Source of the DNA: Phoronis australis
Taxonomy: Eukaryota; Animalia; Phoronida
Reading direction: 5' to 3'
DNA length: 64,000 nucleotides
Assembly (NCBI GenBank): GCA_002633005.1
Contig: NMRA01000191.1
Coordinates: 1-64,000 of the forward strand
Shown piece by piece: positions 5,583 to 59,373 of the stretch. The notes under the pieces were generated by a model that worked only from the letters and a program-made list of their open reading frames with translations, ran no database searches and was not told where the DNA came from. Each line of letters starts with the position of its first letter. Positions within the stretch are counted from its first letter, which is position 1. The position numbers and the translations under genes were made by a program.

Positions 5583-8500
5583 TTATCTCTCCGACTGTGT
5601 GCCTAATCCCATGACATGTTTTGCCGAAGTGTCTTCAATGCGACCGTTTTCCAATGCCGCTTCAAGATCGTGGTCTTGCGCCTCCTGTAGAAATATTGTA
5701 ACTAAGTGAGAAGCGAAGGTACCTAAGAGTGCATAGGCAGATCCCCCACCCCTCTTTTTTCCCTTGATTTCAGTGATTTCAACTTGTTTACTGGAATCCC
5801 CTTTTAAAAAATCTTTGATCCGCCCCTGCCGTGCCTTTTACTGCGTACAACAATTAGACCTTGCCATTAATACCTCCATTAAACATACAGTACAAGTAGA
5901 AAATATTCAGACTAAATTACTTGGAATTTTTATTTTGTGTATATCTTCATGGCGGTCAAGGTCTTTGTTGTAGAGCCTTATGCTTATTAGTCATCGGTAC
6001 GGGAATTGTTTATATGTGTGGATACTACGTTATAGAGCAGACATGAAAAACAAGCAGTTGGTTTTAAATGTGAAAAAATGGAAATCTGCATTCTCCTGTA
6101 CATCATAGCATGTTAAAGTTTTTTCTCATGTGTATTTTTTTACAAAGGGCAATGCCAAATAACCACAAATCTCCCTTACTTCCTGAATAGGCAAGCGTAG
6201 TTCATCGCCATTGGCCATTTCGTGCTGACCTCTAATTTCTGCAGGTGGCTCAACCTGCGCTTGACGAAGCATCGGCTCCCCAGCGTCTAAAGCAAAAATC
6301 AGAAATAAGCTGTTGGTTGGTGACTTTGGAAATTAAAAAAAAAAACAAGGAATGCCGAAAAATAGGGTTCACCGTAACATATTTTCATTCGAAGATGCAT
6401 AGCCTCAATGAAACATGGCTTTGAAGATTCAAATTTTCCTATTTTCAGCTACTGCAATTGTGCTAAATAAGAGAACCATGCATGCACACTCCTTCACATA
6501 AAAATGAAATCGTCACCTTGACCTTGCCTTTGTCTTCCACATTTCAAGCACCCAAACTTCATCTTATCCCTGTATTTGAATATTGTGATCACTGCAATGA
6601 TCAATAAAGCAATTGAAGGGACGATAAACGATACAGCTAGCGCATCTGATGATGGAGACGAAGAGTTTCCTTTCGTTTCTATAGACAGCTCTGGTGGAAT
6701 GGTGGGGTTCCCGAGCGTAGGCATGGTCCCCGGTATCCAGAAACGGCAATCTGAAAAGAATCGAGCTACTCACACAGTGGTCGTAAAATCTGTGCATGTA
6801 ATTCGGAAACACCAATGAGGGCCCAGGGAGTAATTAAAGAGCAGCATTTTCTTCCACCAAGGACTGTGGACATAAAGTCACCAATGTTCAATGTTTTAAT
6901 GTTATGTAGGACCTTATCGACATGTCTTGCACTTAGCAAAATGTCTAGAAAACTATAGATTTTAACTCACCAAAAGCAGTGGCGGATTTAAGGTGCCATG
7001 CCCCCCCTAAAATTCTACCAGATACCATTTGGGAGTTCTGGTGCGCGCAAGCAGGGGCTCGTAGGGGGTGAATAAACAACGCATAGGCCCTGAACAAACC
7101 CCGTTTACCGTTTTTATTTTTTTTAGTTAACAGGTCCGCAACCCCAAACATTCGAGGCCTTTCCGTCCCCACATTTTAGGCTGGGCGCGCGCATCTGTCG
7201 AAATTTTGGTTATTCCCGTCCCTGGCCCCCCTAACTCTAAATCCTGGATCCGCCCCTGAAAAGTATATATTATCTGAAAGTAAAAGGCCTCATAGAAACG
7301 TAAAATTAATTGAATTCCTCGCCCTTGTGATTAATACAAAATAGCACTTGTTTCCGACAAAAATGATTACCAAACATAACCATGCTTTCATTTTTAATTA
7401 GCAAGGTCTTCAGACATTATTGTGAAGACCTACAATTATCTAAAATGTTGTCTGGCGGCAGCCATGATACTGATTTTAAACTGTATATGGTAATAATTAC
7501 ACACCAATGCAACAGTGACGATGGTACTTTGAATATGTTGTACATTTTACATGTCACAGAGTTAACAACTAGCGACAAAATAAACCAAAGACAAAATACC
7601 CTTGCAATTAGGATCACCCAGACAAATTCGTTGATGTTTTTCTCTTTTGCTTTTACAAAGAAATTCGCAGGAACGGTATTCCTTCACGCCTTTGTCAAAA
7701 TGGTGAGCCTTTTTGCAGCTTCCCATCTGAAAAACAAAAGAATTCGTTTCAAGAATAGCATGCTAAATACTGGGTCAGCGAAATAAGACATAGTTTGTGA
7801 CAATCTTTTTAAGATCCAACAGGGACTGAAAAATTGAACTTTCACGCGTATCTTGGCTTGTGGAGTAGATTTGAGCCTTTCACGAGAAAAAAGATAAGAA
7901 TGATGGACTTCAGTTGAGTAACATCGGGCAAGCCAGGGCGATTATTCGGAAGGGGGAGGGGTGTAAACGGATAGCTGCATAAAACTATGTTGTTTTCATT
8001 TTCAATCAATAAATACCAAGTTTGCCAAGACTGTATTCTTTGTTAACAAATGATATATGAATTGGCTTTTAAGATGAACTTTTCCGAATAAATGTCCCAA
8101 TGTCTGAACACTTGAAAGCCCCAAAGTTGTAACACTACATAAACGTCCATGGCATGGGCGTTTCATTGGGTGGGCCTTTTTGTGGAAATTCCCGGCAGTG
8201 ATGCTTATGGCGGGTAGGAAGACGGTCAGAACCAGGGCTCCTTTTGCTGGGCTGAAACGGATATTTAGGAGGCCTATTGAACACCGTGTGAGTCCTGCAA
8301 GAATTGCCGAGAAAGTACAGTCTACACGCAATATCTGGTACTGTACATTGTTTGCGAATGTGGTCACCTTGTCAATGTGAGTGCTCCCTGGGTTCATTCC
8401 TTGCATAGGTCTGACTGGATATGGTGTATCTTGAAATGCACTGGCGACCAAACCACAGCGCCCGCCACAACGGCCCTTACAAAGGACAAATAATTCTTCC

Positions 8501-11500
8501 AAAAACCAGTTGTTCGTTTTTTGAAATAAACACATAACCCGTACATCATGTTTATCGCGCAAGACACCTTTGCAGGCCCGTAGGAAGGCAACGAGTATTG
8601 ACCATTTCGACTTCGCCAAACAACTCCCATCGGCCACCACCAGGGCCACCCCCCCCCCCCCTTCNNNNNNNNNNNNNNNNNNNNNNNNNNNNNNNNCCCC
8701 CCCCCCCCCCCCCCCCCGTTCTCCCGTGCCACCATGTCTGTACCGAAACTCCCATGTCCACCCTAGGTAGGGGGCACAGTGGCGGATTTAGGGGGGCAAG
8801 GGGCCTATGATCCCTCTAAAATTCTCCCAGATTCATTATGGCAGTTCGAGGGAGCGAATTTCTGACGGACAAAACCCTGGCTAATACTCTGACGTGCACG
8901 GGTCAATCAAACAATTCAGTTTTGAAAAACAAAAACAAAAATTCATTGCTCAAAACTACTGGAAACTAAAAAACACCAAGAGAGTGCAATGACAACCTAT
9001 TTGGGGATCCAATTATAGAGTTTTTGCAAATTCAGGCTGCAATTAAATTTATGGAAACATCATCAATTCTTACAAGATTAGCTTATAATTGTCAAAAATC
9101 ATCTTTGAATCTATCGATTTTCGTAGATACATAACCAAGTAAATTAGAAACCAGCGAATTTGTTTATCAAAACGGAATGTTATAAGCAATTTCTGCCTGC
9201 ATGCTAGCAGACGGGTAACAGGGGAATATGTGAAATGGGGCATTGGTATCAAGGTGTATTTTTGCTCATTTTAGAGGTATCCATAGCGATTCACGAGGTA
9301 AAGTTGAACTCCACTGTCAAAAAAACGTTGAAATCTTTGTTCATGATTGCGAGAGTTCTTTGAGTACCCCCTTCCGACATGTACACGGTCATCACATGTA
9401 GTAGCCTAGTCAGCAGTGTTTTCACATTTGGGAATTCCTTACACACAACTCATAGTAACCATCTTCAAAAGATATACTATTCTTGTGATACTATGGGAAA
9501 CAGTAACATTATTTTATAACGTACCACCGGAAAAAGTCCTTTTCATATATAGTGGTCTTCACGTTCTTCAAAATTCCACCCTTCGATGGCGGTCAATCTT
9601 ATTGTACTTTTTCACGTTTTTGGTTGTTTGTGTCGAATGTTTTGATACTGCTGTGCTGTGCACAAATGATTTGTGTTTTTTCATGAATTTGGAATCTTAC
9701 CTTCCCTCGTCAATACTTGGCAGTGTCGTATTTACATGTATAGACGGACAAAGGGACATTTCCCCCGAATTGCTCCACCGAGAAAGGGTCCCGTTTGGAG
9801 TGGAACACCTTACGATGAAAGGCTAAACCTCATTAAGCTTGGAAAAAGAGTGGCAGTTCATTCCACCGCCATGTGGTCCTAAAACGAAGCAGGGAGTGAG
9901 TTCCTTCAACAGGAAGCTTAAGCCGGTTGTACGATTTCACGAAAACAGGAAAATATAGGTAATCGATTCCAACATTGGGCCCTCTCTCCGTGAGCGGCCT
10001 CTTAAGAATTTGCCAATAAAAACACAAAAAGGGTGGCCGCTTGAATGTCATCAGAGGCCTCCTTCAAGGACGGGGCCCTTAAATATGAAAATTTCTATAT
10101 TTTCAAAAATCAGAAATTGATGTTATCTGTTAGTTTATCAATTTTTCTCAAGTGATATACAATTTAGAGAAAAAATAGATCGAAAGTTGACTCCGTTATC
10201 CCTTGCCAGAGAGAGGCCTCCGGAAAAATATAGTTCTGCATTCGCAAAATTGACTTATCGAATTTAAAAACCCAGTAAATTAGTACACTCCGCAAAAGCT
10301 TCGCTTTACACATTTTCTTGATTTTTCAAAATATATGTATGATTGTTTACGTGCACGTTTTCAAATGTGTTTAGACGACCTGTGCTGCAAAAGCGGAGAC
10401 CCTAACGACAATGTCCTGGCCAAGGCCTTCAAAATGTAAACCATGCAGTGATACAGAGTTGTTAATTGTTCTCTTGAATTTTCTGTCTTATACGTATTTC
10501 GCAGTCTTTCGTTTCTCAACTGTCCCCGGCCCCTACGCCTATGTCGGTTGCCATGGTTTAACCCTGACGCCTGAAAATTTTTTTGGGGGGCTGTGCCCCC
10601 CCCCGCCCGCTTCCTACGGGCCCTGCTTGCCCATACACCGGTCAAATTCAAGTTACGTACGTGTGACGTGTAATACCACCACTGACAAGGCACGACATGT
10701 GAGATAAAAACGTTGCGCGTCGATTCACCTGAATATTAGGGTTGCCGTATCACAGTATTTTTCTCAATCATATCAAAATGCTTTGCTTTTCGTTATTACA
10801 GCAAATCACAATATTATTAGGGTGAAACCCCCATTTTTTCGAGGTGGTTTACTTGGGGTTTACCTACGCTGGCGGTGTCGTTTTTGTTTTGCTGGCGACG
10901 TTTTTTGTTATTTTTTTCTAACCCTGTCCCAAGGGGGGGGGGTTTAAACCCCGGCCCTGAACCCCCCCCCCTTGTGTAGATACGCCACTGTGGCATACAA
11001 TTAGACAAATTTGGGAAACAGGGTTACCATGCCCAATCATGAAGTTCCTATCCTTAATGTTTCCAACCCACTTCCAGTCGGAGACTACCTACTTAAATCA
11101 GTTACAGAGGAGACAAATAAGGGACGTCATTGCTCAAGAGTGGACATTTCTCCATATGGTAAGTTTTACCGACATCAAACTATCCCGTCCAATATCCTTC
11201 AAAATTTCACACTGACTACCTCAGACCAGATCATGGGCGGCACAGCACTGAAAAAAGTGGGGGACTATAGCCCCCCCNNCCCCCCTGTGGTGCACCACTC
11301 CGACATAGACCATGGGCGCCGGAGCACTGAAAAAGTGGGGCTAGCGCCGGAGCACTGAAAAAGTGGGGCTATAGCCCCGCCAGCCCCCTATGGTCCGCCG
11401 CCCATGCAGATATCACTATAAAAATGTGAACACTATGTCAACACCAATGAAACAGCAGAAATGAGAAGTAGGCCACAGCTCGTTGGCTTCCGCTATAGAT

Positions 11501-13695
11501 TAGTATATTGTTTTGACTGAGTGTTAGTATTGCAGTTACGATAAATGTACCACCGATACTTTCCTACTCGACCGTATTGGCCAAAACAGTACGATGACTC
11601 ATGAGGTCTGAGTCAAAATCCTCTTTGACTCCTACAAAAGACCTAGCACGAGACCAGGACTGCGGCAAAGTAATATGCACACTATTCCATCTTCCCTCAG
11701 CCAAGCCTTCAGGAAATCTACCATATTAACTTGTATTGACAACTGGAATTCCTTACCATCCAAAATTAAAGAAAGGTTAGCACTTCAATCGTCACTCTAA
11801 AAAATAACTTTAAAATGCATACTACTACTCAAGAGTTGCCAGTCCCATTGACATCGTTCCAACTTCCTGGCAACCATGAAATAACCCTATACAGATCAAG
11901 ATGTGGTCTATTCCTAAACAACGAGAAATTTAGACATAATTTTAATAATATTTCGCCTCTGTGTTGCTGTGGAGACGCACAGACAAATGTTCATGTTTTC
12001 TTTGCTTGTGAGGTATGCAAGGAGCAGAGGGTACAGCTTTTCCAGACACTCGAACAATACCCCAATATTTATAAAAAATATTCTGAAATTCCGCAAGTGT
12101 ACAACAAAACTTTTTTTTTTCGATATGGAAGTCAAGAACTCAACCCAAATGAAAATAAGGTTTTATTCGAAATAGTATCAAAATTTCTTTATAATATTAA
12201 ATTTCTTTGTGTGAGTGGATAGAATTGTATACATGTGTATGAAAATGATTCATTTACTTTCGTAATCATATGTCATTGTAATCTTAACAACAGTTTTTTT
12301 AATTTATGTATTTGTGTAAAATAATTGTATACAGATTTCTTTTTATGTATTTGTGTAAAATAATTGTATACAGATTTCTTTTTATGTATTTGTGTAAAAT
12401 AATTTTATATAGATTTCTTTGTACTTTTTTAACCCAGATATAATGCCTCTTGGCGCTTTCTGGGTTATGTATATTCATTGTATCGAAGATTTCGTAATAA
12501 ACATCACAAAAAAGGTCTGAGTCAAGTTGATCGACACTTGCCACGGCGACACGGTACACAGAGTGTAGACAGGCAATCAGCCAAGACATCCTTGTGTTAC
12601 TGAGGAGTAGAAGTGATGCTTTATCTTCTTAAAGATGTACATATCGCTGGTAATCGTCTGCTTTGATTTTCTCAGTAAATAATTTGAACGTACTCACCTT
12701 CAGTAAAAGGTACAAATTTCCATATATATATATATATATATATATATATGACCCTGACATAATTCTTGGTCTCCAGTTTTCTACATAATGAATGTGTATT
12801 AAAGAATGCTGTGCCACAAACTTTTCATATACCACGCGAACACGCAATGCGAGCACTACCAGACACTGGGGATTTTTTTTTGGGCACATAATGAAAATTA
12901 GGGGGGGGGGGGCGGGCTGACATGNCCAAGATTACATCGACCAATGCTAAAGCGCGTGCCACTAGGTGATACCTGCGTGCTGGCTGGGCTAAGCACGCAG
13001 GGAACCAGCGAGGTTTACATGCAGACAGCCACGCATGCGCAATTTAATCACCACTAGTACAGCAGCGACACCAAGAGGAGAATTCTCCGAATAGCCCCAT
13101 TGGAAACCCTTACAAAATTGAACTTAAGTTTTTCGCAGAAAACTTAAGTTTTTGACGGAGTGGGTACCCTAACCGAGACGATGTCAAATGACGAAACCTC
13201 GCAGTCGCCACATGTTTGATTGCCAACTCTTGACGATCCCTGAGATATAAAGTACCCGTCAGAATTCACGCCTAACCCAGGCTTTGCATCGAATCAAACC
13301 ATACGTGAGAAGTTAAACGCCGCTATGCCCTCAGCGTAGGTCAGTTAAGTTATCAATGCGTGGCTGGTTAACCTGCATGAAAACTTATCACTAAGGCAAG
13401 GTTAATTGTGTTCATGAGTCCAATGGGTGTCTCTGCTCGTGAAAAGATTGTTCGAGAACAATAGCGCCTGATGTATTATTCAGACATGAATGTATATTAG
13501 GCCTGTAGGGCCTATATAGCTGAGGCTACACTCGGATGCACTAGGCCTAATGAATGTTGTTTCAAACACCAAAAACTCAAAATTAGTCCATAAACGTTTG
13601 CGCAGTGAGTCATAAAACCAAGTTAAGCCGACTTTTAGTAACTTGTCGACAAAATACAAACCAGTTCACCGTGACTGATGCAGACTCACCTTCAT
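5583..13695 (-). CDS. Putative type III (no signal peptide) TNF-receptor-superfamily-like protein, BCMA/TACI/BAFF-R-like, paralog A (~191 aa)
   Basis: Manually spliced GT-AG exons in consistent phase: 13695-13690 (GCC-ATG AAG|gtgagt); 7726-7600 (MGSCKKAHHFDKGVKEYRSCEFLCKSKREKHQRICLGDPNCK, a CRD); 6750-6517 (DCRFW..stalk..SDALAVSFIVPSIALLIIAVITIF-KYRDK, a TM helix plus basic stop-transfer); 6286-6180 (..ELRLPIQE); 5684-5583 (EAQDH..SER*). Intron phases 0,1,1,0 match paralog B. The family call rests on Cys spacing, topology and the PIQEE TRAF motif, not on a database search. Confidence 0.72.
6977..7258. mobile_element. Non-autonomous DNA transposon (MITE) with CAGKGGCGGAT termini and a 5-bp TSD
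   Basis: Starts CAGTGGCGGATT and ends GATCCGCCCCTG, flanked by AAAAG at 6972-6976 and 7259-7263. Related ends occur at ~1-30, ~5815-5828, ~8777 and ~10990. Confidence 0.7.
11232..11406. mobile_element. MITE with CATGGGCGGC TIRs and 5-bp TSD (CAGAT)
   Basis: CATGGGCGGC...GCCGCCCATG with CAGAT at 11227-11231 and 11407-11411. The internal motif gcactgaaaaagtggggct is repeated. A related 5' end occurs at ~29014-29050. Confidence 0.72.
11570..12420 (+). mobile_element. Degraded 3' fragment of a non-LTR retrotransposon (CR1/L2-type ORF2 C-terminus plus repeat tail)
   Basis: NWNSLPSKIK at ~11741, then ORF 11815-12222 with LNNEKFRHNFNNISPLCCCGDAQTNVHVFFAC (a CxC..HxxxxC knuckle typical of LINE ORF2 C-termini). 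Frames are disrupted upstream, and an AT-rich tandem-repeat tail follows. Confidence 0.7.
12303..12420. repeat. 39-bp minisatellite x3
   Basis: Unit tttatgtatttgtgtaaaataattgtatacagatttctt starts at 12303, 12342 and 12381. Confidence 0.9.
12722..12749. repeat. (AT)n microsatellite
   Basis: Direct reading. Confidence 0.9.
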
Positions 13696-13712
13696 GGCTG
13701 GATTGCTGAATT

Positions 13713-13787
13713 ATTGGTGACGTCACCAATTCAGCCAGGGATTTCCCCCGTCCCAACACGCTTCCAGAATGTTCCTATGACGTCATA
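13713..13787. promoter_or_regulatory. Proximal promoter of receptor A: two full CRE palindromes flanking a perfect kappaB site
   Basis: attggTGACGTCAccaat at 13713-13730 (18-bp perfect palindrome), GGGATTTCCC at 13738-13747 and taTGACGTCAta at 13776-13787, all within 100 bp upstream of the ATG at 13695. Confidence 0.6.
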
Positions 13788-14211
13788 AAACTGATCATTT
13801 TGCTACTGAAGAAACTTTAGCGTCTAGAAAGAGGGACTCGGTAAAAATATGAGAGTACTCCAAACATTTTACAGGTTCATCAGTTGCTAATACGGATAAT
13901 TATAAGAAAAATGCACATATAGGCACCTAAGGTGACAATCTGTAACAAATTTCTACAAACGAACAATTTCACTAGTCAAAGATCGAAAGATCTCTCAGCA
14001 CAGTTTAAAGGGCGTAGCAGACAATATACAATCGAATAGCTACGGGAATGGGACTGTGGGTTTCGACGGTGCTCGACAGAAGCTTCGCAACGGGATTCAC
14101 CTACAAATTTGACAGGTTGCCGGCCGGCACACTCCGTCGACAACCAATAGAGCGCGATGAAATCAAACAAAGTATTGTGTTCGTGAAACAAATGCGCAAC
14201 ACCTCACTTAC

Positions 14212-14432
14212 CTTTAAATTTAACTAGGTTGCGTAGTATCAACTCAATAAATTAGTGGCCTATTTAGCAAAATTTTCATAAATGTAAGTTGCATTTCGTC
14301 ACACAACTCCAAACAAAGCGGCCATTGCATTGGTAGCGAAAAAGGGTCGTTCCGGTGCAAGGGGATTTCCCAGGCACACACGGGTACTGCTCTTGTCAAC
14401 AAGGTCAAGACCAATGAGATAGCTCATTGGTC
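14212..14432 (-). promoter_or_regulatory. Candidate upstream non-coding first exon and alternative promoter of receptor A
   Basis: Perfect minus-strand donor AAG|GTAAGT with the exon ending at 14212. kappaB site GGGGATTTCCC at 14361-14371. Inverted CCAAT pair gaccaatgag-atag-ctcattggtc at 14409-14432. Confidence 0.45.
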
Positions 14433-15583
14433 AAGACGTCATCGCCGCGTCTCAGCGGGACTCTGAATCGGTGTTTCACAAAAAATCTACTCTTAACGAG
14501 ATTGTTACATGATTTCATAGCTTTAAAAATATGTTTTAAAGAATTTGGCTTGAAAACGTGGCCTTGTTTACCCACTACGCTAGAGCCTGCTGTGACTCAG
14601 TGTTTTCGGCTCACTTGTCGTTGTTGGGGCGCGTTTATTTTCATAGCAACATTTTGAATCGCGCACCGCTGACATTTCTACGATGATTTCCATAGGAGTA
14701 AACGAACATGTTTTTTATCTATCCCTGAAACGGCATTCCTGCTAAGCAACGTACAAAGATAATTGTCATATTAAATCGACTTCCAACCGGGAGAAAAATT
14801 GTGTACGATTTTTCAGTGCAATCAGGGGCACGTTATGACGTGGAGAACCGATACAACTTATTTAGTAAGTCCTCTGTATATTTGTTTGCAATATAGGGTA
14901 AAAGTAAAGTGGATATCACACCTCCAGGGTGTCAATTGAAAACTTCTACATATCAGGTATCACTTTAAACGTTTTCTTCATTTTATAAAAATAAATTTTA
15001 ATGACACTCTTTTCGCTTCATTTTTGTTAAAAGCTTCATTTTCACATTCAGTCTTGTCGTATGAGCGGAAACACCGGGAAACCACTGATTTCACGTAAAT
15101 GCAAAACGTGCTCGGAGATTTAATTGCCGATTTATCGCAAAACATTGTTAGATGTGTGCATCTTTTTCATGTTTTTAGAAAGTTTAGCTATCCAAGAAAT
15201 TGTGTAGCTTAGTGTGTATGTCTTACGTGATTGTTTGAAATAATGGTCTTTGGCCTTCCTCGATCGCGTTTTGATTTTTCCCAGAACAACTACAGTAATT
15301 CGGTGGCAATAAGTGACACAGAAATATTATACTCATATTTCATGCCAAAACATCTCAATCTTGGTAATATTTCATGAAAGCAAACTAGAAGAATGCTTTG
15401 ATCATAAATATTCAATGCAAACAATAATAACGGAGTGTTTGCAAATTAAACACAAACATTTGCTCTCCTCTCAGAAGCAGATGTATAGGCGCATGTCTTG
15501 CTGTGAATGCAGACATACATATTGTGCAAAACAATTTCACGAGGTTCACTGGTTTGACAATCCATTTCTAGATTACAAATCAG

Positions 15584-16092
15584 GGCCCGGGGTTCTAATC
15601 TTTTTACTCGAAATGGAACTCGAAATTGTGTTTGGCATTTTCTACTCTACTTGTCTGTGCGAACTCAAGATAAATATACATTATTGCATGGCGAAGTCGT
15701 TATGCCCGGTAATCTAGAGCCCGAGTGGATTTTGGAGAATGATCGCCCGAGGGGCGTTAGCCCCGAGGGTGATAATTCTACATATATTTATTCTATTCTT
15801 GAGTACATGATGACTTTCGTGAATAATTATAATTTTAGTCCTAGTTTGCTGTTGATAAACCCAACATTAAGGCTAAAAGTTCGAGTTTGACCTCAAAATT
15901 TCGAATTTTTACTCGAGTTTGTAGCAAGGATATAAGAATCATCAAGTGCAAACTTGGACTAGAAACTCATACGCGTAAACTATTCAAGCACAGTCTAATT
16001 ACTACTTACCTTGAGTTCGCACAAAAGTAGCAGAGAAACTGACAAAAATAATTTAAAATTCGTTTCGAGTACAAAGAATCAGAATCTGGCCC
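15584..16092. mobile_element. PIF/Harbinger-like MITE (~510 bp)
   Basis: Imperfect ~30-bp TIRs (ggcccggggttctaatctttttactcgaaa / tttcgagtacaaagaatcagaatctggccc) flanked by CAG on both sides (3-bp TSD). Internal GC hairpin at 15742-15773. Confidence 0.55.
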
Positions 16093-19000: not shown

Positions 19001-20325
19001 AACTTCAATTGACTATATTCACAGAACACCTCTGTGCTTATTTTTCTGATGTCAAACATGCCTCACTGACCACTCTTGGTCTTCATACTTCCCAGATCTT
19101 GACCTGTGGACAGGTATCGAAGGAAAAGTTGTAATGGAAATTAGAGAAATGTCACATGTTACTTTTAGCCAGGCTCATCACAAAATTCAATTAAAATACG
19201 TCCATGAACTGTAGTGTACAACACATGGATCGAACATGCTGTTGATTGTTGGACAGCGCTCGGAAATGGACACTAAATGGCCATTAATCATGTGATTGTT
19301 GTCAGAAATAAGCTTTGATTTAGTCCACATACATTCAAACATATTGGTCTCAAATTATTTCTTCGTCAAATTAAACGTAATTTCATGGTTTCAAAAGAAT
19401 CAGCAATTCGTTTGTCAATCTTCGTACCACTGAACCTAACAAAATTTCAGGTCACCGCGTGATCTACAAATGTTATGGGCTTGGTTTAAATAAAGATACA
19501 AGGAACTATCAATTCTTTCTGAGCACAGAAAACACTTCTAAATTGAGTAAATAGCAAATTGAGACCATTTTTCTAACGGCAAGTAGCCTAAACCTAAACT
19601 TTTTTTGATCGATACCAAGGGTTTAAGTCAAAATTTAAAACTGGCACTGCAAAAATACATTAAATAAAACCCTCGGCTCTCACGATGACCGGCTTTTGAA
19701 TAACATCTGGATACATGTAAACATTCCCTTAGACTAAATTTATATTTGATAATTCTTTAAGACCCTGATCCTGTACATTAAATAAGATAGTCCAGATCTC
19801 TCCAAATACATTGTACATAGAAATACTTCTAACTCATTCAGGCTGAGGCTCGTCGTGTTTTATATACGTATGTCCCACCAAACATTTGTTATGGGAAATA
19901 AATTTTCATGACAATTCCTACCTACGATCTTCTACTGGTTCCTAGGTCAGATCAAGTTTCAACACTGTTGTTAGAGTGTCGTTTTCTAGCTGTTATTGAC
20001 ATAGTACGAGCTTGTTATCACTGAATGCATGTAACCCGAACCACAAGGTGAGCCAAAACGCACCTGAATTAATCACAACAAAAACTTTCAACATCGAAGC
20101 TTCTATGGATGGATGACATTTCTACCAAATCTACAAGAATGATGTGACGTTACCGTTTCATGATACATGTACACTCTAATGTAAGTGTTCACGATTTTGC
20201 TGCACTAGAGCACACTCGCTGTCGGCAAAAAGTTGTCGATCACGTCTCCGTTCGTCGATGCGTTTGTTCAAGCTCGTTTTCTCTGAGTGAGTGTTTCGTC
20301 ATTTCTTCAGTGCTGCATGCTTGTA

Positions 20326-21634
20326 TTATTACTCTGCGCGTGTAAGCGCAGAGTACTGTTGTTCCTGGGTTTTCTTCAATTTTATTACTCTGCGCGTGTA
20401 AGCGCAGAGTGCTGTTGTTCCTGGGTTTTCTTCAATTTTATTCTTATTCTTATTCTTCTTATTCTTCTTATTCTTCTTCCGACCAACTTTGAGGCTTATT
20501 AACTCCAAATTGGGTGCAGATACGGTCTTTAAATTCAGCATATGACTTTTGACAGTATATAAATTTTGATTGGTTATACAATCATGTTCCATATTGCACC
20601 GGAAGAGGTCGTTTGGTGCAAAGGTCATATAATTTTCAAAATGCTACTCCTCCTTCAGTTTTAAAGCTAACTTTTTCAAATTCGGTGCACAGGTATAAGT
20701 CAACATGACAATTTAAAAAATTACTTTTCTAAGTAATCGGGTCATCCAATCAGGTGAAATAGGTCAAAGGTCCTTAGGTGCAAACTAAAATTTTGAGCTC
20801 GACACTTCAAATTGACAGGTCTGATTGCCACAGGTAAATCAAATCGGAATCCAAAGTTTCAGGTCATTTAGTGCAAACATGGGGTCATTAGGTGCATTTT
20901 TCTTCTGAAAATTTGACCTTTTCAATCAGCAAGTATTCTGATGTGTCAACCGTTAGACAACTGTGATTCTCAGCGTTAAACACATTTTCCATGGGCTTTG
21001 CAATAATTCTCCTAAAGATGCTTAAAATGCACCGGATAAGGTCAATTAGTGCAACGGTCATGCAATGTTCAAAATGTTATATCTTTTTCAAGGAATTCTT
21101 TTCAATTTCAGCACACTGGTGTAAGTCAACATGCCAATTGAATACCCTACTTTACTTCGCAATAGGCCTAACCAATCAAAAAATAGGTCAAAGGTCATTG
21201 AGTGCAAACTAAAATTTTGAGCTAGAGACTTCAGAATTACGTATCTGTTTACTAAGTGCGATTGAGTTTGAATTCTAAATTTTCAGGTCATTTGGTGCAC
21301 CCATGGGGTCATTAGGCGCATTTTTCTTCTGAAAGTTTGACCAATTCATTCATCTTGTATTCTGAAGTGCTTAAAGTAAAACATCTGTGATTATTAGCAT
21401 TAACCGCACTTTTAATCGAGTTAACAATTACTCCCTCATCGGGGCTCATAATGCACCGGAAGAGGTCAATTAGAGGAAAGGTCATCAACAAATTAATATG
21501 TAATTTCTCCTACAATTTTAAAGAATTCCTTTTCATATTGGAACGGGTTTCTGTCAGTAACTTCTCATGCTAATTCCAGTATTACGCATGCGCAGAGTCC
21601 GTTATTGTCACGCCGTGACAATAATCTTTCTAGT
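20326..21634 (+). mobile_element. Helentron-associated (HINE/DINE-1-like) non-autonomous element with tandem core repeats
   Basis: 5' sub-terminal hairpin actctgcgc..gcgcagagt (duplicated as a 56-bp unit); (ATTCTT)n microsatellite at ~20438-20479; ~430-bp core repeats (tgcaccggaagaggtc-like motif at ~20595, ~21028, ~21452); inverted sub-terminal copy gcgcagagt at 21590-21598; 3' stem-loop ttattgtcacg-c-cgtgacaataa at 21602-21624; T-rich flanks. Confidence 0.75.
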
Positions 21635-24442
21635 TTGTATTGTCATGGTATTTCAAATACTCTGGCCAATGAAAATAAAAATCAAGCGAGTTCGAATCCT
21701 GGAAGTATATTAGTGCTCATTCAGTGTAGTCCCATCTTCAGCCGATAAATTTCAGTGTCCTCAGAAGTCTCTGTCAGTTATGTCACATAAGCTGTATGAT
21801 GAGTAGTGAATCCACCCTATGGAGCCACTGCGGATCCCTTTTAACAATCCACTTACTCTCTGGAGTCTAAGAAACTTCTCCAGCACCGAGACACGGAGCT
21901 CTACAAAACCGACCAATCCTTAGTCCTCGAAACAATAACACCATTAATCTGCTTTACTTTGAAATTTCAAACACGATGTCAGTCATGACACCACACAGTG
22001 AAGACGGAGGCATTGGCGTCTACTCATAAAAATAACACACTTGTTTACTTAAGTGTTTTATTTAAGCATTAAGAAGACTTCACATCTAAAAACAAATGCA
22101 AATTACAGCAGTTAAAATGGATAAAATAGAGACAGCAACAAGTGACTCGAAAAGGAACCAGGCGTGCGTTCCGGTAGACCTCGCTTCCAGCGAAAAAAGC
22201 AAAAACTCGCAAGCGACTTCGCGAGATATCGCCATGTATTGCAAGCGAAGCAGGGGGTCACACCAACTTCCTTAACGACATTCTTGCGTCTACGAATGGC
22301 TAGTCATGTAGTAAACGTTGACCAATCAAAATACTCTATAAATAGGTACCACAACCTTGACCAAATTTACAAAGCATGTAGTATAGCCAGCAAAAAACGA
22401 GATAGACTATAAAATTTCCAGTTTAAAATACAGCAGCAAAAAGTCAACAATAATCTATTTACAGTGGAAAAAATACCAAGTGCACATAAATAATTAATAT
22501 TCAAAAAATACTAAAAATTCAGTCACATAATTCCAACATTTAAGTAGGTTCCACAACCATAACATTTAGAAAGTCGGAAACCAAATGAGAGAATATATAC
22601 AACACCCTTCTTCCTAAGAAACACTTGAACCAAATTCAATGCTCCATTACCACTCTTTCACATTTTCTCATTAATTCTGTATTATATATTTTTAAACAAA
22701 AACATTCATAACTTTTACACTTGTACTTAACATTGTTCCGGGATCAGTATAATAGTCCAGGAAATTTGAAAAATACTGTTGTATCAACTGATGTTTCATA
22801 TAAGTACATTACAAAGTATGGGTCATCCTCATAACAGAGTAATCTCACCAGGAAATTCAAAATACTGTTGTATCAACTGAGATGCAAATGTTGCACAAAC
22901 AACATAATGTTCAGTACATTATAAAATCCTCATCACCATTACCAATGAATAACAGTCACACTGTGTCACTGATAACAATTATGCAATACTGCATATGGCA
23001 CAATATAATACATACATGTGCATGTATCCAGTGTAAATCTGGCAGACAAGAAGACAGAAACATCAAGAATGACGTGTGATTAGTCAGGGTTCAGCCATGG
23101 GGTAGGAACTTCCACTGTAAGCATGATGCACACATAACAAACATATGCATCCTACAGTTTGTGCCACTAAAAAATCACTTTTTATCAAAAAATGAGCTCA
23201 AGAACCTTTCTTTTCTTGAAATTTCAACGAGAGCAATTTATGGTTATGACATTCCGTTTCAGACACAATATGGTGGGCAGGTGAAATTTCATTTTGTTGG
23301 TCAAATTTTTCAACTAAATAACATTTCAGGAAACCTTACATTACTTTTAGCATGGTTTGTGTGGCGCAGCTATTACCAAACAACCCAAGGTAAATTTTTT
23401 AGCATTTGCAACCATGTGGTAAGGCTCTGACAAATAAAAATGTGGCAATTTTGGCGATTGATCTTTTCTCAAATTGAAGAATTTTTACCGTAATAATGCG
23501 TGGCACATCTCCCCACACCTACTCAATAGGAGTATTCCCCTGAGTTAAACACTAACTTCTGGCTCTTCTGTATCTTCATCTGATCTTAGACTGTGGCACA
23601 CAATCTATGATCTGATCTACTTGTTGACTAAGATTATACAACTAGATTAAACTTTTCTTTTATATTTTTTTCTTCAAATTTTTCACTTTTCAGTGATTAG
23701 AAGTTAATTCTTGAAAAGTCTGTCTTTTCCTCCAGCTCCTAACTCTTCCTCCATATCATTTTGGTTTCTATAGAAACGATTCTGCATACACATCAATGTG
23801 AACAAATACAAGTATCAGAGGCCAAGAGCCTAAATATACAAATAAACGCTCATACCTGATATTCATTACAAGATTCTGAAGTTTGCTGAGCAAAAACTGA
23901 TTTAGGTACTACAAAACTTTCATTCGTTCTTTAACAAGTACAGAAGTGAAAAATAGGCTACAGATTTTCAGTTCTTAAAAGGACATTATGCAAATGAGTT
24001 ACACTGGAATGTCTCATAATCTAACACCAACGGATCTAAAACGTTAGCGGAGATTTCAGAGTCAAAATAGATGAACTCTTGGTTTCCACATGGTCATATA
24101 ACAGTAAGTCATTCAACTACTGAAATGTTACTTCAGAACAGAGGGGGACTACATTTTTGACGACAGGTAGAGAGTAAATCTTGAAAATCATTATACAGAA
24201 AGTGAACTTGATGAAAGGGACAAATTTGTAGTACCCTTCCAAAAAGTTACCCTTTCATATAAGATTATGGTCCACGACCACCATACTTTTGAAGGGATCA
24301 ATTTCACATCAACCTTTTCGTAGGTTGACAGCTGAATTTTCAACTGATCTACTTAGCCTGAACGAGTACAAGAAGACACAAAGCTCAGTGAAATTTTGTC
24401 TACAACTTTGGCTGTCCATTTGGCTGTCAGCAGTGATGGTCC

Positions 24443-26834
24443 CTAATTTTCAGCAGGCTGTCGTGTAGTCGGTGATGCAATGGCTTTTGGCCTGGTTTCC
24501 ATGCCCTCACCTGATTCCTGTAACAAGAAAATTTTACATTTATTATCAGTTGAAAAGCACCTGTACAGAGAGAGATTTTCACCACCGAGATTGAACAATA
24601 ATTATAGCCACACTTTTGACAACATAAGTTTGTAAGGCCTTTGATAAATTCTAATATGGCATATATTTCTACAAATAAACAAGCATTGTTCAAATTGACA
24701 AGATGAGAACAAAAATTTTGTCAATAGTGTTTTTTATGAATTAATGTTGGAGCTCAGCAAACCTCTCCATCCCTTTTGTTGGGTACCAAAAAGTCAAATG
24801 TATTCCCCATGAAAGACATTTGAAAACCTGCTGTTGTACAGTTTTTTGCAAATGATCAAATCAAGCTACTATTGACAAGATTAGCCCTCAACAGTAATGA
24901 AAATTATTAGGTCGTCATTTGCAGCCTGGTCAAAATCTAGCTCGCAATTTCGAAAACCACTTCACATACAGATCTCAAGACATCAAATCTTGATGACCAA
25001 GAAATTTGTTGGAACAACTTTTCAATTCATCTAAAAATGCTGTGTGGCATTTTCGCGTGCTGTGAATCAGCCAATTGGCCAGAATCTCAGGTCATATTTC
25101 TAAATTTCAGGTCTCAAATGGGACCTGTAGCTCATGTCAAGCCTTGAACGTTATGACTCAACTGAACCTAAATCATCGTGTAAAAAGTGCTATTATCAGA
25201 CCACGTTTTATACTGACCTGACAGACTCTTTCGTTACTACCATTAGGAGAAGGACTGAATCCAGAGTCTGACTCAGAGTGATTGTCTTTCATTGATTCTT
25301 GAACAGCATCAGTCAGGGGTTCGACCTCTGCAAGCTCCACTATACAGTAGACAAATAATACAGTCTGAATAGGTATGATTCTGACATGCTTGCTCAGAGA
25401 TATAAGATGGTACATTTCATCCTAGGGCAAAAGCCGTCTGTAAAATGTATTATGCATACCTAAAGGGGAATTAAAAATTCTGGTTCAGGGCCCTCCACCA
25501 CCTGAAGGGAAGGTGCCTGTGCCTTATGAACTGGGAATTTTTTTGGTGGAGGTGAAAGCGGGAAATTTTCCACCTCAGTCACCACCAATTTCACCCCTTG
25601 GTGGTCACTCCTCATCGACAGTGCCTCAAGTAGCCAAGTTTGCAAAGTGATTCTAACCTTAAGGGTAATATTCAATCATGGGAGGGAATTGTTCAGCCTG
25701 ATGGGATCGGAATTTAAATACTTTTCATGGTTAAACTAGGCTCAACATTGAGAGCCTGGAGGTTTCACTTGAATTTTGCTCACAGATTTCAAATTATCAA
25801 ACAAACCAAAACCGTTCAACTAATAGAGAAGTAAAGCGTTTAGCTACTGATTTCCAGGAAATTGCATGAAATCTATGTGTTTGTGTTCAGCAAAAATTGG
25901 TAAGAAACTGTGCATTCACCCCAAGATGAATGAAGTTCAACACTGTTCAAAGAAATTAGGCACTCAACAAATGTAAAAATATGCAGCTTCACTGTTTCAG
26001 TGATCCAGGGCCTCGTTCCAAGAAAACTGACTTAGCCAAGACAGATCTTAACTTTCAGTCAATTTTAAGGTAAGACTTAAATCTGTCTCAAGATCATTTC
26101 AATATTTAAGTTCGACTTAGGTTTTGGACTGAAGTTTTGTCTTAATTTTGATTATTTTATCAGATGTACTAGAAGTTTCAAAGTTCGGAATTTGTGAGAC
26201 ATGACAAATCTTAGACTTGAGTCAAAAATGAACTTAAGTCAGTTTCTTGGAACGGACCCCAGGTTTTTAACGTTCAGTGGTGCGGTAATTTCAGAGCTAA
26301 TTGTTTCTGTAATCCTAGTGGCATAAAGATTAGTTGAGCACGAGTTTGGAATGTTTTAGTGGATATTTGTATCACAGAGATCCACTGAAAGTTGTTATAT
26401 GATTACATTGATACAATATGTAAACACGAAGACTAGATTTAATTGTAGACAACAAACAGCTTGTAGCAAAACACTAACTAGATGTTGCTAGCAATCAGAG
26501 GATCATCCTTATTAAACAGACATTTCATTTTTGCTCACAACCTGATGAGACAAGTTAATCAAGGATAAAAATGATCTCACAAACAAACGTTCTATACTAT
26601 GATAGAAAATGATTTCTGTCCCCACGCATACCAATCAATGAACCACAGACAAATATGATAAAAAAACAGAAAATACAAATTTGACCCACAGGTCCTCCAA
26701 TTCGAACCTTAGGCTTGAGATCATGTGGGTCAATTGGCCCACAGCCACGTGATATTTTAAAAGCTACGCAATGGTTTGTTGTATGCTAGTATCTCACATA
26801 TACAGTTACACAACTCATTCTGGTTTATACCTAT

Positions 26835-26874
<40 letters not shown>

Positions 26875-29743
26875 CTCTATAGTTTGAAAACACAACTCAC
26901 CATCTAGTGACTTGTCCTGAGCTGGCAAACGACGGTTTCTCTTCCAATACTTTATGAGCATTGTGATGGCAACAAACCCCACGCAGAAGCTGACAACAAC
27001 AAGAATAGCGATCAGCGCATCAGATGGTACAGAATCTACAACACTGCCTCCTGTTGTGACATCTCCGGGGTTAGCCGTACTTTTAATTGTGGAGCTTCTC
27101 ACTAGCAAGTACCTAAATTCTGAAAATGTAAGCACATTTAAGAAACATAAATTTTAAGTTACAGAAAAAATTTGAAAAAACCATGGAATAAACAATGTAT
27201 ATAACACTTCAAACCCCAATTTTTGTAACCAAAGAACATAAACTGGGCCCCCTGTAAATAACAAATGATGTCACCGCACTATACAATAGTCTATGATAAA
27301 TGACATGATGACAATGACATGCCAGTAGCAAAGTTCAACTAGAAAACCCGTTGGCAAGTATTTTGCACATCCATTGATCAGGAGGCCCAGGGTCTTGTTG
27401 CATAATTGCAAATAGTAAAATATAAAACAACATTGTTACATATGCCTCAGTGTTGCAATCATTGCACGAGTTGGATGTGCAAAATTACAAAAACATGTTG
27501 AGCTCAGACTATCTTGCTAATACAATAAAAGTTACCAATAACAAGCAAGAAGTGACTTGCATAGCACAATTTTAAGAAAATTAATATAACATTTTATTTC
27601 CAGACTAAACCCATTGCTTTTCCAAATATGCCTCCCATGTAGGAGCATGAATTGATGCACATCTTCAGTCATGATAATGTATTGTTAATCATTAACACAT
27701 TTTAGTTTATTCAGTATCAACATTCCTTAATTTTTGTGACGGATTTGTAGAGCTTGATTAGGAATCTTAAAATGATTATGTAATTGTGGTTCTGGGACGA
27801 AAGGGAGCAAAATTAGCAACTGTTCCAGAAAATATTTATTGCTAGAAATGGAATGCATTGATGGTCTTTAAAGAAAACTGCTCCACCTTCAGGGAACAAC
27901 AGTTATGGACATACTTGTGTAAGATCAGGTATACAGTACAGAAGGGAGACTCCAGGAATATCAATTTCACAAACAAGAATAAATATTTCAATGTTGGAAT
28001 GGGGTATAACAAACCTTTGCACTTTAAGTCCTCTGAACATTTTCTTTGACTGCTTTTTCTGATGCTCTCGCACAACTCCTTACACTTTTCACAGATTTTG
28101 AGAGCAAGGTTGTAGTGCTCATATCTGCCACAGTTGTCAAGCACCTGTAATATAACATAGCATGGACACTCTTTCACAAAAACATCAGCAATTCCAAACC
28201 ACTCCCATTGATCACTGCCATCATCATCTGTTAGATCACTGATAGACAGTTGTTAAACATTCCGTTCCCAACAGTGCAATATATCATCATCAGCGTACAG
28301 GTTACGATAAAAATTCTACAATTTGAGAAAGTTTCTAGAATTTGGGCCACGGAAACTCACGCAAATTGAATTGAAATTTCGGCAGTCTTGACACATCGTG
28401 GAATTTGAGACATTAGGCGATTTTGGCACTCACCATATTTCTCAGCTTTTGGACAATTATTATGCTTCACTCTACGGAGAGGGTAATTTTGACAATTTCT
28501 ACGCTCCTTGAATTTGGTATGGCCAATACTGGCTAATTTCTAGAATTTGGGACAAGGTCCGACCTTGAACAAAATAAATATAATCTTCTGCTGTCCCAAA
28601 TTGGGGAATTTTTACCATAATTCATCATTATCATCACCATCCTTATTCATTCCATAGTCTTACTGCTTTTGCACTGCTTCAGTCAGACTGGGTTAAAACA
28701 ACCACTAGACAAAGCTAGCTATCAAAAGCCCTATAAGCGGTTGGGTTGGCCCCTACTCTAAAGGTGCACGTATTTCTATAACACTGAAACTCTGCGAAGG
28801 TTGTGACAGGCAAGGAATTGAAAAGTTTATACGAACTGGCTGTTGTAGATAAGCCAGCCCAGCTATGTCATATAGGCCTACAGATGATTTGCACCGAAAA
28901 CCATTTGGTGTACAGCCTACAGGATAAATATGTGCTGTCATTTAGGCTTAGGCAACACATCGACTGTCGGTGGACGCCGAAGACGATGGTCCTGTACTGA
29001 GGCATGGCTACAACATGGGCAGCGCAGCACTGAAAAAAGTGGGGGACTAAACCCCCTGAATTATTGAGCTCTCGTTTTCAGTATATTTTTACTAGTATAT
29101 TTTTACTCGAATGTTGTCTGTCATCTCTGACTCCCGGAGCTAACTAGTAAAATACACGGGCAAAGCTCAACTCTAATGACTATAAGCTAGGAACAGTAAC
29201 GCTAGGACCTACGCTAGGAATCTAGCCAAAGTCACATGCTCTCATTTGAAATACACGGCAATATCTCACGTAATCTCGCAAAGTCTTGCTGTTTAGCGAG
29301 GCCCTAGACCTAGCGTTACTGAACGGGAGGCTGGTTCCTAGCAGGCATGCCCATTCTTGCCAGGCGGACACGCCCCGCCACTAATCGAGCACAGCCGCCG
29401 GCATATAAGTAACCCCTGTTAATAATTATTTATAAAGGTAATCACCAGCAAATGGTCCACGGCATTGCGATTTCAATCTAGTTATCAAGGTGCTGACTCG
29501 CCGACCCATGTAAATCAGTCAGTTCCAATCACTATCTTCACACCAATGCGCCACATGATACATGTTAAGTTGTCGGCTTTGAGTTAACCGGCCGTAAATC
29601 AAGGCAAGTGAACAATTAAAGCAATATAAGACGGTATTAAGATTGGTGATGACATTAGACTCGTAGCTTAAACTAATATCTGAAAGATTGTTGAGTCATT
29701 CATTGTAAAAACGAAGCTTTAATGAGAAACGAAAAATTACCAT
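24443..29743 (-). CDS. Putative type III TNF-receptor-superfamily-like protein, BCMA/TACI-like, paralog B (~182 aa)
   Basis: Exons: 29743-29741 (ATG|gtaatt); 28144-28015 (VLDNCGRYEHYNLALKICEKCKELCESIRKSSQRKCSEDLKCK, C-x12-C-x2-C-x3-C-x10-C-x5-C); 27119-26901 (S/T-rich stalk, TM SDALIAILVVVSFCVGFVAITMLI-KYWKR); 25339-25218 (..DAVQES..DSGFSPS..VCQ); 24517-24443 (ESGEG..PAEN*). All introns are GT-AG and phases match. The terminal exon is the least certain (alternative at 23781-23704). Confidence 0.72.
26009..26259. mobile_element. PIF/Harbinger-like MITE (~250 bp) in intron 3 of receptor B
   Basis: TIRs ggcctcgttccaagaaaactgactta / taagtcagtttcttggaacggaccc, with CAG on both flanks. Confidence 0.62.
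26838..26872. repeat. (TG)n microsatellite
   Basis: Direct reading. It lies ~30 bp into the intron after the TM exon of receptor B. Confidence 0.92.
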
Positions 29744-29927
29744 CCTAGACGTATGACGAAATCGGCGAGAAAGGGAGATAACAAACGAACGAAAGTTACT
29801 AAAAATAACTCAGGGATTTCCCAAGTCGAACTGACGCCTGGCGGTGCGACAGTAGGCTAATGGAACGCATTTCCGCTAAACAAATTGTTGTTTAGGACAT
29901 ATGTCGCAGACCAAGTAGGCTACCCGA
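29744..29927. promoter_or_regulatory. Bidirectional promoter between receptor B (-) and METTL22 (+) with a kappaB site
   Basis: The start codons at 29743 (-) and 29928 (+) are separated by only 184 bp. GGGATTTCCC lies at 29813-29822. Confidence 0.65.

Positions 29928-40835: not shown

Positions 40836-59373
<18,538 letters not shown>

Follow-up and report, generated by a model that had tools for sequence, protein, structure and literature searches.

The first 64,000 nucleotides (nt) of Phoronis australis contig NMRA01000191.1 (the window, meaning the whole stretch of DNA that was analysed) contain two neighbouring minus-strand genes, here called A and B. They are tandem paralogs and likely tumor necrosis factor (TNF) superfamily receptors derived from the same ancestor, with a single cysteine-rich domain (CRD), as BCMA/TACI/BAFF-R and Fn14, a reading to which we give a probability of about 0.52. 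That A and B are TNF receptors (TNFRs) is probable, and they likely work as single-CRD type III receptors in the manner of BCMA or Fn14; common descent with BCMA, TACI, BAFF-R and Fn14 is plausible and unproven, and we regard it as an even call. Gene B is spliced and expressed, and its host can safely be called a lophotrochozoan on the sequence of the neighbouring SUZ12 gene.

Both genes follow one five-exon plan, with phases 0,1,1,0 and canonical AG/GT at the exon boundaries: a start-codon mini-exon, a cysteine exon of 127-130 nt, an exon for the stalk and transmembrane helix, and two exons for the tail. This bears out the architecture claimed for this strand in a preliminary description of the DNA. 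Gene B encodes 182 amino acids in coding exons 29743-29741, 28144-28015, 27119-26901, 25339-25218 and 24517-24443. Its exon 1 (29741..29760) holds 5′ untranslated region (UTR; at least 17 nt in the reads) and the ATG only, exon 2 (28015..28144) the CRD, and exon 3 (26901..27119) a Ser/Thr-rich stalk, the transmembrane helix (KD19 2.83) and a basic juxtamembrane segment. Exon 4 (25218..25339) encodes tail with a weak TRAF-type motif, AVQE. Exon 5 (22062..24517) completes the coding sequence with 24 codons and continues into a 3′ UTR of ∼2.35 kb, near the end of which AATAAA stands at 22062. Gene A is a predicted model of 191 amino acids, with coding exons 13695-13690, 7726-7600, 6750-6517, 6286-6180 and 5684-5583. 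Its predicted exon 1 (13690..13695) encodes Met-Lys ahead of a GTGAG donor, exon 2 (7600..7726) the CRD, and exon 3 (6517..6750) an extra cysteine, a Pro/Ser/Thr stalk, the transmembrane helix (KD19 2.81) and a basic juxtamembrane segment, while exon 4 (6180..6286) ends in a TRAF2/3-type PIQE motif whose next Glu lies in exon 5 (5583..5684), which carries the end of the tail and the stop codon.

Local alignment of A with B scores 119, against 30 ± 5 for shuffled sequences, none of which (0/1000) scored as high. By region, shuffles reached the observed similarity in 0/2000 cases for the CRD and 2/2000 for the stalk and transmembrane helix, and the two second exons are 36% identical. The pattern C-x(10-14)-[C/Y]-x2-C-x(2-4)-C has five six-frame matches in the window, and only those of A and B stand in this architecture. 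No third paralog and no second copy of exon 3 was found within the 64 kb, and a Pfam scan of the flanks (92 of the 96 listed open reading frames (ORFs) plus six exon stretches) gave no match at E ≤ 0.01 among the 98 stretches, and so no third gene or ligand in the gaps scanned.

Four RNA runs with the same species label were mapped to the gene B region, X1 as contigs and X2, X3 and X4 as raw reads (∼18-19% of each). The junctions of exons 2-3 (12/6/28 reads in X2/X3/X4), 3-4 (10/3/20) and 4-5 (12/5/41) are each crossed on one strand only and fall exactly at the predicted bases, and one X1 contig also joins all three. At the first junction, 21 X4 reads leave exon 2 at 28144 with a loose end equal to window positions 29742-29760, which shows that the mini-exon of gene B exists and continues past the AG that precedes its ATG. 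Thus all four splice junctions of gene B proposed from the DNA are confirmed, and the junctions and first exon of gene A remain predictions. The long 3′ UTR is spanned by X1 contigs over 22089-24516, with X2-X4 reads on the same stretch. High-copy short repeats at 21500-21650, 25940-26270 and 28400-29400 draw many unrelated RNA reads on both strands, and a related element lies in the first intron of gene A near 11270.

Upstream of the gene B ATG, an in-frame stop lies at 23 codons with no ATG between. Because the mini-exon start is in the reads, this stop stands upstream and a head-to-head transcript begins close by, gene B has no signal peptide, and an upstream exon encoding one, among the findings that would have refuted the earlier proposal, is excluded for this gene. 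The predicted start of gene A also has an in-frame stop upstream, and the first 30 residues of A and B are not hydrophobic. The net charge flanking the transmembrane helix is −3 before and +4 after in B, and −1 before and +4 after in A, which by the positive-inside tendency would place both N-termini outside. The absence of a signal peptide and the single transmembrane helix, as claimed earlier for both proteins, are therefore type III features found in gene B with reads and in gene A by sequence alone. The ectodomains of ∼80 residues fall between the lengths reported for direct gamma-secretase shedding (∼50 residues) and for poor cleavage (>100) in the available text of one study (PMC4490565).

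Exon 3 of gene B occurs in two alleles ∼10% apart, found in two studies (X1 and X4); X2 and X3 carry the form of the window, and X4 carries both, each at about half depth. The X1 form differs from the window at 21 of 213 aligned bases and by a 6-nt deletion (2 residues), compared with 18 of 2570 bases over the remaining X1 transcript (Fisher p ∼3e-14). The encoded residue changes at 15 codons, of which nine lie within or next to the transmembrane helix; pN is 0.098 and pS is 0.094. Allelic differences are below 1% in exon 2, exon 4 and the UTR, and the exon 2 alleles show two synonymous differences only among the rows listed. The divergence of exon 3 could reflect a long-standing balanced polymorphism or gene conversion by a paralog not seen here.

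The two tails, of 81 and 88 residues, resemble no death domain, and their four exons match no Pfam family, in keeping with the earlier statement that the pair lacks one. Scored against the TRAF consensus patterns, the gene A tail carries PIQE, with a further Glu contributed by exon 5 beyond the junction; PxQE arises in 460 of 10,000 shuffles of the tail, and a narrower pattern, picked after the sequence was known, in 7 of 10,000. The TRAF motif claimed for gene A is thus a fair one, and no TRAF6-type motif was found in either tail. TRAF binding is described for BCMA, TACI, BAFF-R, XEDAR and Fn14 (PMC3697994, in part).

The cysteines of gene B stand at residues 6, 19, 22, 26, 37 and 43, a spacing of 12-2-3-10-5 whose first three intervals are identical to the 12-2-3-8-3 of BCMA, so that the C-x12-C-x2-C-x3-C previously likened to BCMA is exact and the likeness ends with the last two intervals. 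Gene A has cysteines at 6, 22, 26, 37, 43 and 46 (15-3-10-5-2), with Tyr at 19, whose TAC codon is one base from a Cys codon, and the extra cysteine opening exon 3. The CxxCxxxC core of TNFR CRDs (PMC6001812, available text), set in a six-cysteine extracellular domain followed by one transmembrane helix, is present fully in gene B and with one cysteine replaced and one added in gene A. When a two-sequence profile of A and B was searched against 177,635 PDB sequences at E ≤ 10, eight matches were returned, three BCMA constructs and five short HOP/STI1 TPR stretches (E 0.04-6.7). The BCMA constructs (E 0.79-1.1, positions 1-36) are the only matches that span the domain, and TACI, BAFF-R, Fn14 and Grindelwald are not among the eight. 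In the BCMA alignment the aromatic residues and the Asp/Asn of the hairpin are in register, as had been noted earlier.

The same HMMER alignment places the sixth cysteine of BCMA on the fifth of A and B; the C4-C6 bond would therefore be kept, leaving Cys22 free for Cys43. The second module may be of the nested C2 type known from Fn14 and Grindelwald, which its spacing fits at least as well as it does the second module of BCMA, and the 3-10-5 spacing is compatible with the nested C2 consensus of 3-11-3 given in the available text of PMC8024323. Fold prediction, suggested earlier as a check of the A1-D2 fold, was uninformative. The AlphaFold models have a pLDDT of 61 for gene B (2 sequences) and 58 for gene A (1 sequence), with pTM of 0.35 and 0.29 for the two models; that of gene A places short helices at 20-25 and 29-32, where the second module is expected. 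Of the two Foldseek searches with these low-confidence models, one found nothing at E ≤ 10 and the other a single match, which is not a TNFR, and VIA gave no match for A at Z ≥ 2 and only generic helices for B (best Z 3.3), again with no TNFR. NCBIfam returned one weak, irrelevant match, and the ESM Atlas no usable match for either CRD. A full phmmer search of 1.84 billion representatives returned two matches, which were rejected as repeat proteins without the cysteine pattern.

The promoters of A and B provide a further clue. Scanned with what we take to be the kB consensus, the window has 11 matches at 7 loci; 100 shuffled versions averaged 2.86 and never reached 11. The exact 10-mer GGGAAATCCC is present in three copies against 0.056 expected, and two of these lie within 80 nt of the ATGs of A and B, a coincidence with a background chance of ∼6e-5. 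In gene B the site (29813..29822, minus strand) lies 70-79 nt upstream of the ATG, and in gene A (13738-13747, minus strand) 43-52 nt upstream of the predicted ATG, where it stands between two TGACGTCA palindromes of the cAMP response element (CRE) type in the proximal promoter (13718..13785, minus strand). A second kB-type site of gene A (14361..14371, minus strand) lies ∼670 nt upstream of its ATG. The best local alignment of the two upstream regions is a 17-nt kB block, identical at 15 of 17 positions, and its retention in otherwise unalignable DNA argues for selection. Between 7730 and 22000, eight phase-0 exons with a GTRAG donor could supply the start of gene A. Only the one chosen as exon 1 has a kB site within 100 nt, and the block therefore also supports that predicted exon. 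Taken as sequence motifs, these sites point to Rel/NF-kB control of both genes. The window holds five perfect TGACGTCA palindromes where 0.77 would be expected, and two of the five fall in a duplicated SUZ12 segment described below. The gene B promoter is also shared, as gene B and a METTL22-like gene stand head-to-head within ∼270 nt, with one bidirectional promoter (29743-30411) that contains the kB site.

This METTL22-like lysine methyltransferase gene (30011..36589, ends approximate, plus strand) is supported by an RNA splice, by PF10294 (E = 0.0023) and by METTL21-type PDB matches (E ∼1e-4). Its plus-strand splice from 30011 reaches two acceptors 3 nt apart, 30408 and 30411, in different runs. 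Beyond it lies SUZ12 (40851..59373, minus strand), identified by PF23320 (E = 2.6e-24), tblastn and a tree. A SUZ12 exon search gave a best match of ∼77% identity among the best 120 of 628 matches listed; as these include no identical SUZ12, the database searched appears to lack the proteome of this species. The tree was built from 14 pieces, 549 residues and 18 chosen homologs, the named rows of which hold no annelid, nemertean, phoronid or echinoderm. The window falls, on a long branch, in a 100/99 clade with chiton, abalone, Lingula and two further rows, with Lingula nearest (93/89, 64% identity). The earlier claim of an invertebrate genome is upheld by this check on SUZ12, and the tree makes the host a lophotrochozoan, rejecting an echinoderm. 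Within SUZ12, a 2.15-kb segment (49131-53421) with two coding exons is tandemly duplicated at 97.3% identity, either as an uncollapsed haplotype or as a real exon duplication.

These neighbours bear on the origin of the pair through ancient linkage. We take UTP6 and RHOT1 to be neighbours of vertebrate SUZ12, TXNDC11 and ZC3H7A of BCMA, FLCN of TACI, and ZC3H7B of BAFF-R. Among the rows listed from a hagfish-genome supplement, METTL22 and each of UTP6, RHOT1, TXNDC11, ZC3H7A, ZC3H7B and FLCN are assigned to chordate linkage group H (CLGH, one of 18 CLGs in all), while none of the 31 TNFRSF rows listed is; TROY is on CLGF, and the multi-CRD TNFRs are on the CLGP/D/I/Q/K/L rows (PMC10972751). 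Human METTL22 is at 16p13.2 (PMC13765333) and BCMA at 16p13.1 (PMC6095983, available text). SREBF2 and ERCC4 lie on vertebrate H segments, but the groups given for their families are F and B. The names snx29, gspt1, cops3, cenpm, mprip, rsl1d1, nt5m and pemt were not found among the rows listed, nor was any of the gene names found in the ohnolog supplements of PMC7269912, PMC8040251 and PMC13450315. By estimate rather than computation, the chance of a coincidental linkage group is ∼1/10 to 1/18. Linkage group H and the shared kB promoter site are two independent new clues that may support the earlier reading of the pair.

Several observations weigh against the proposed descent. With 177,635 sequences searched, the match to BCMA at E = 0.79 falls short of significance, so that the profile comparison asked of the CRDs put BCMA forward as the sole full-domain match and did so weakly. 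Searched alone, gene B matched tachycitin (E = 0.12, residues 2-31) and EDAR CRD1 (E = 1.5, residues 3-22) with BCMA absent from its matches, and gene A matched nothing. Neither CRD exon matched a Pfam family, whether TNFR, BCMA, TACI or CBM14, with filters that drop weak matches, and a word-based homolog search with the gene B CRD gave no candidate and a search with the A+B alignment five candidates, none at E ≤ 10. The C4-C6 spacing is 10-5 in both proteins versus 8-3 in BCMA, gene A lacks the second cysteine, and Asp-x-Leu is absent from both, the residues in register being Asp-Lys-Gly in A and Asn-Leu-Ala in B. In the low-confidence model of gene B, a long helix takes the place of the expected hairpin. 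AVQE in the gene B tail fits the loose TRAF consensus only and arises in 4351 of 10,000 shuffles, which puts the motif claimed for this gene at chance level, and the tails of A and B cannot be aligned, with no significant similarity (539/2000 shuffles as high). The synteny, for its part, is one observation at chromosome scale. The name METTL22 for the PF10294 methyltransferase is our presumption from motifs, and rows for BCMA, TACI, Fn14 and the SUZ12 family were not found among those listed in the hagfish-genome supplement. According to the available text of PMC11789643, H and Q are fused throughout the lophotrochozoans, and the Lingula chromosome that carries H also holds A1 and C2.

Compared with known receptors, A and B most resemble BCMA, TACI and BAFF-R in build, being type III proteins of ∼180-190 amino acids with no signal peptide, no death domain and neighbours that appear to come from linkage group H. 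In vertebrates the CRD exon and the transmembrane exon of BCMA, TACI and BAFF-R are closed by phase-1 introns, as in A and B. Fn14 and Grindelwald have a signal peptide and are type I, and the Fn14 gene lies at 16p13. In the available texts, BCMA is described as a type III protein of 184 amino acids with no signal peptide and six N-terminal cysteines (PMC6095983; PMC4490565), and the type III TNFRs as BAFFR, BCMA, TACI and XEDAR (PMC6001812). Like BCMA, A and B have one six-cysteine N-terminal domain starting in the first ten residues, with the 12-2-3 spacing of C1-C4 in B and the hairpin in register. Unlike BCMA, they have no Asp-x-Leu, a different C4-C6 spacing, an ectodomain of ∼80 rather than 54 amino acids, five exons with a start-codon mini-exon, a host without B cells and a sequence match that is not significant. 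BCMA, TACI and Fn14 contact their ligands mainly through Asp-x-Leu, which Grindelwald lacks (PMC8024323, available text). Fn14 shares with A and B the single CRD, a spacing that would fit its nested C2 module (PMC8024323, available text) and a short tail with a candidate TRAF motif; it differs in carrying a Ser-x-Asp-Leu tip motif, the gene B transcript starts at a mini-exon without a signal peptide, and Fn14 is not among the PDB matches at E ≤ 10 for B alone, A alone or the A+B profile. Drosophila Grindelwald is likewise a protostome single-CRD TNF receptor without Asp-x-Leu, in which a hairpin is followed by a helical C2 module, but it has eight cysteines with an X2 first module (PMC8024323, available text) and is not among the PDB matches. 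XEDAR, finally, is type III and TRAF-binding, and EDAR CRD1 is a weak match to the first module of B; unlike A and B, XEDAR, EDAR and TROY have three CRDs, TROY is on CLGF, and the EDAR match covers just 20 residues.

The preliminary description had taken the pair for possible pre-lymphocyte relatives of BCMA, TACI and BAFF-R. Part of that picture is supported, including a spliced gene B, type III topology, an invertebrate host, an N-terminal cysteine domain and BCMA as the best full-domain match, whereas membership in TNFRSF13B/13C/17 is not established, given the missing Asp-x-Leu, a second-module spacing that suits a C2 type at least as well, uninformative folds and a chance-level TRAF motif in B. 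Because Asp-x-Leu and the second-module spacing of BCMA both fail, we do not file A and B in TNFRSF13/17.

A different origin within the same superfamily is rather unlikely. Here A and B would be TNF receptors cut to one CRD independently, from an ancestor like EDAR/XEDAR/TROY, p75 or Grindelwald, with tails that signal through TRAF to JNK/NF-kB and a convergent likeness to BCMA. The match of gene B alone to EDAR CRD1 and the absence of Asp-x-Leu, as in Grindelwald, suit this origin, yet the EDAR match is in the first module only and the paired profile tracks BCMA into the second, TROY and the multi-CRD TNFRs are assigned to linkage groups other than H, and Grindelwald has a signal peptide. 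In the available texts, XEDAR is also type III (PMC6001812), and the C-x3-C-x10-C-x5-C of A and B resembles the C-x3-C-x11-C-x3-C of the Grindelwald C2 module, although that protein has eight cysteines (PMC8024323). The available part of a BLAST survey lists no EDAR/XEDAR/TROY-type ortholog in lophotrochozoans (bioRxiv 2021.12.26.474206), which also tells against independent reduction.

We consider it unlikely that A and B are not TNFRs but lineage-specific, NF-kB-inducible type III proteins with another cysteine fold, CBM14-like or a helical bundle, acting as pattern sensors or adaptors. Tachycitin is the best single-sequence PDB match, the AlphaFold model of gene B is helical, and there is no Pfam TNFR match, no homolog in three protein searches and no ESM Atlas match. 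Tachycitin, however, pairs some of the cysteines only and vanishes with the A+B profile, the fold models come from one or two sequences, the CxxCxxxC core is present in gene B, and size, topology, linkage group and the PIQE of gene A all suit a TNFR. A separate and very improbable reading makes B the functional receptor and A a decaying or decoy duplicate that has lost the C1-C2 disulfide and is maybe not transcribed as modelled. Its C2 is a Tyr one base from a Cys codon, its model is a prediction from the DNA, and its exon 1, 6 kb upstream, contributes no more than 6 coding nt; on the other side stand an open frame of 191 codons over five exons with the same phases, a compensating sixth cysteine, the better TRAF motif, and a kB block with two CRE palindromes despite unalignable flanks.

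If A and B are single-CRD TNF receptors as proposed, the CRD would fold as a β-hairpin module (C1-C2) and a helical module in which disulfide 26-37 probably nests within 22-43, and three receptors would bind a trimeric TNF-family ligand of the same animal. The clustered tails would recruit TRAF2/3-type adaptors, best supported by PIQE in gene A, and thereby activate NF-kB and/or JNK, while Rel/NF-kB would in turn induce A and B through the conserved promoter site, giving an inducible feed-forward loop that would serve innate immunity or stress responses. Because Asp-x-Leu is missing, good binding of vertebrate BAFF or APRIL is not expected. We tentatively propose that protostomes and deuterostomes share by inheritance from their last common ancestor a single-CRD, signal-peptide-free, TRAF-coupled receptor, which lay on linkage group H, was controlled by NF-kB, and was expanded in vertebrates into BCMA, TACI and BAFF-R as well as Fn14.

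Two further features of the window flank gene A. Downstream of it (200-5000) are broken ORFs that by eye resemble retroelement remnants, with no Pfam match at E ≤ 0.01 among ORFs of at least 58 amino acids. Between genes A and B, a 61-nt direct repeat (98%) at 20326-20442 lies beside an AAGAAT microsatellite.

A literature search, with most subscription journals outside it, found no paper that describes a receptor of this kind from a non-vertebrate. In the available parts of earlier work, four human receptors with one or two CRDs could not be traced to invertebrates (PITA preprint), invertebrate TNFRs are mostly related to EDAR (PMC6001812), and a review of TNFSF evolution suggests that invertebrate TNF receptors may not control NF-kB at all (PMC7674686). 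The presence in a lophotrochozoan of an expressed single-CRD receptor, type III in build and with kB sites in the promoters, makes the question of invertebrate TNFR/NF-kB control directly testable. The pair also provides a search image for orthologs in other phyla, namely a start mini-exon and a 130-nt CRD exon next to METTL22/SUZ12. If the proposed descent is true, the type of receptor that serves B-cell survival predates lymphocytes.

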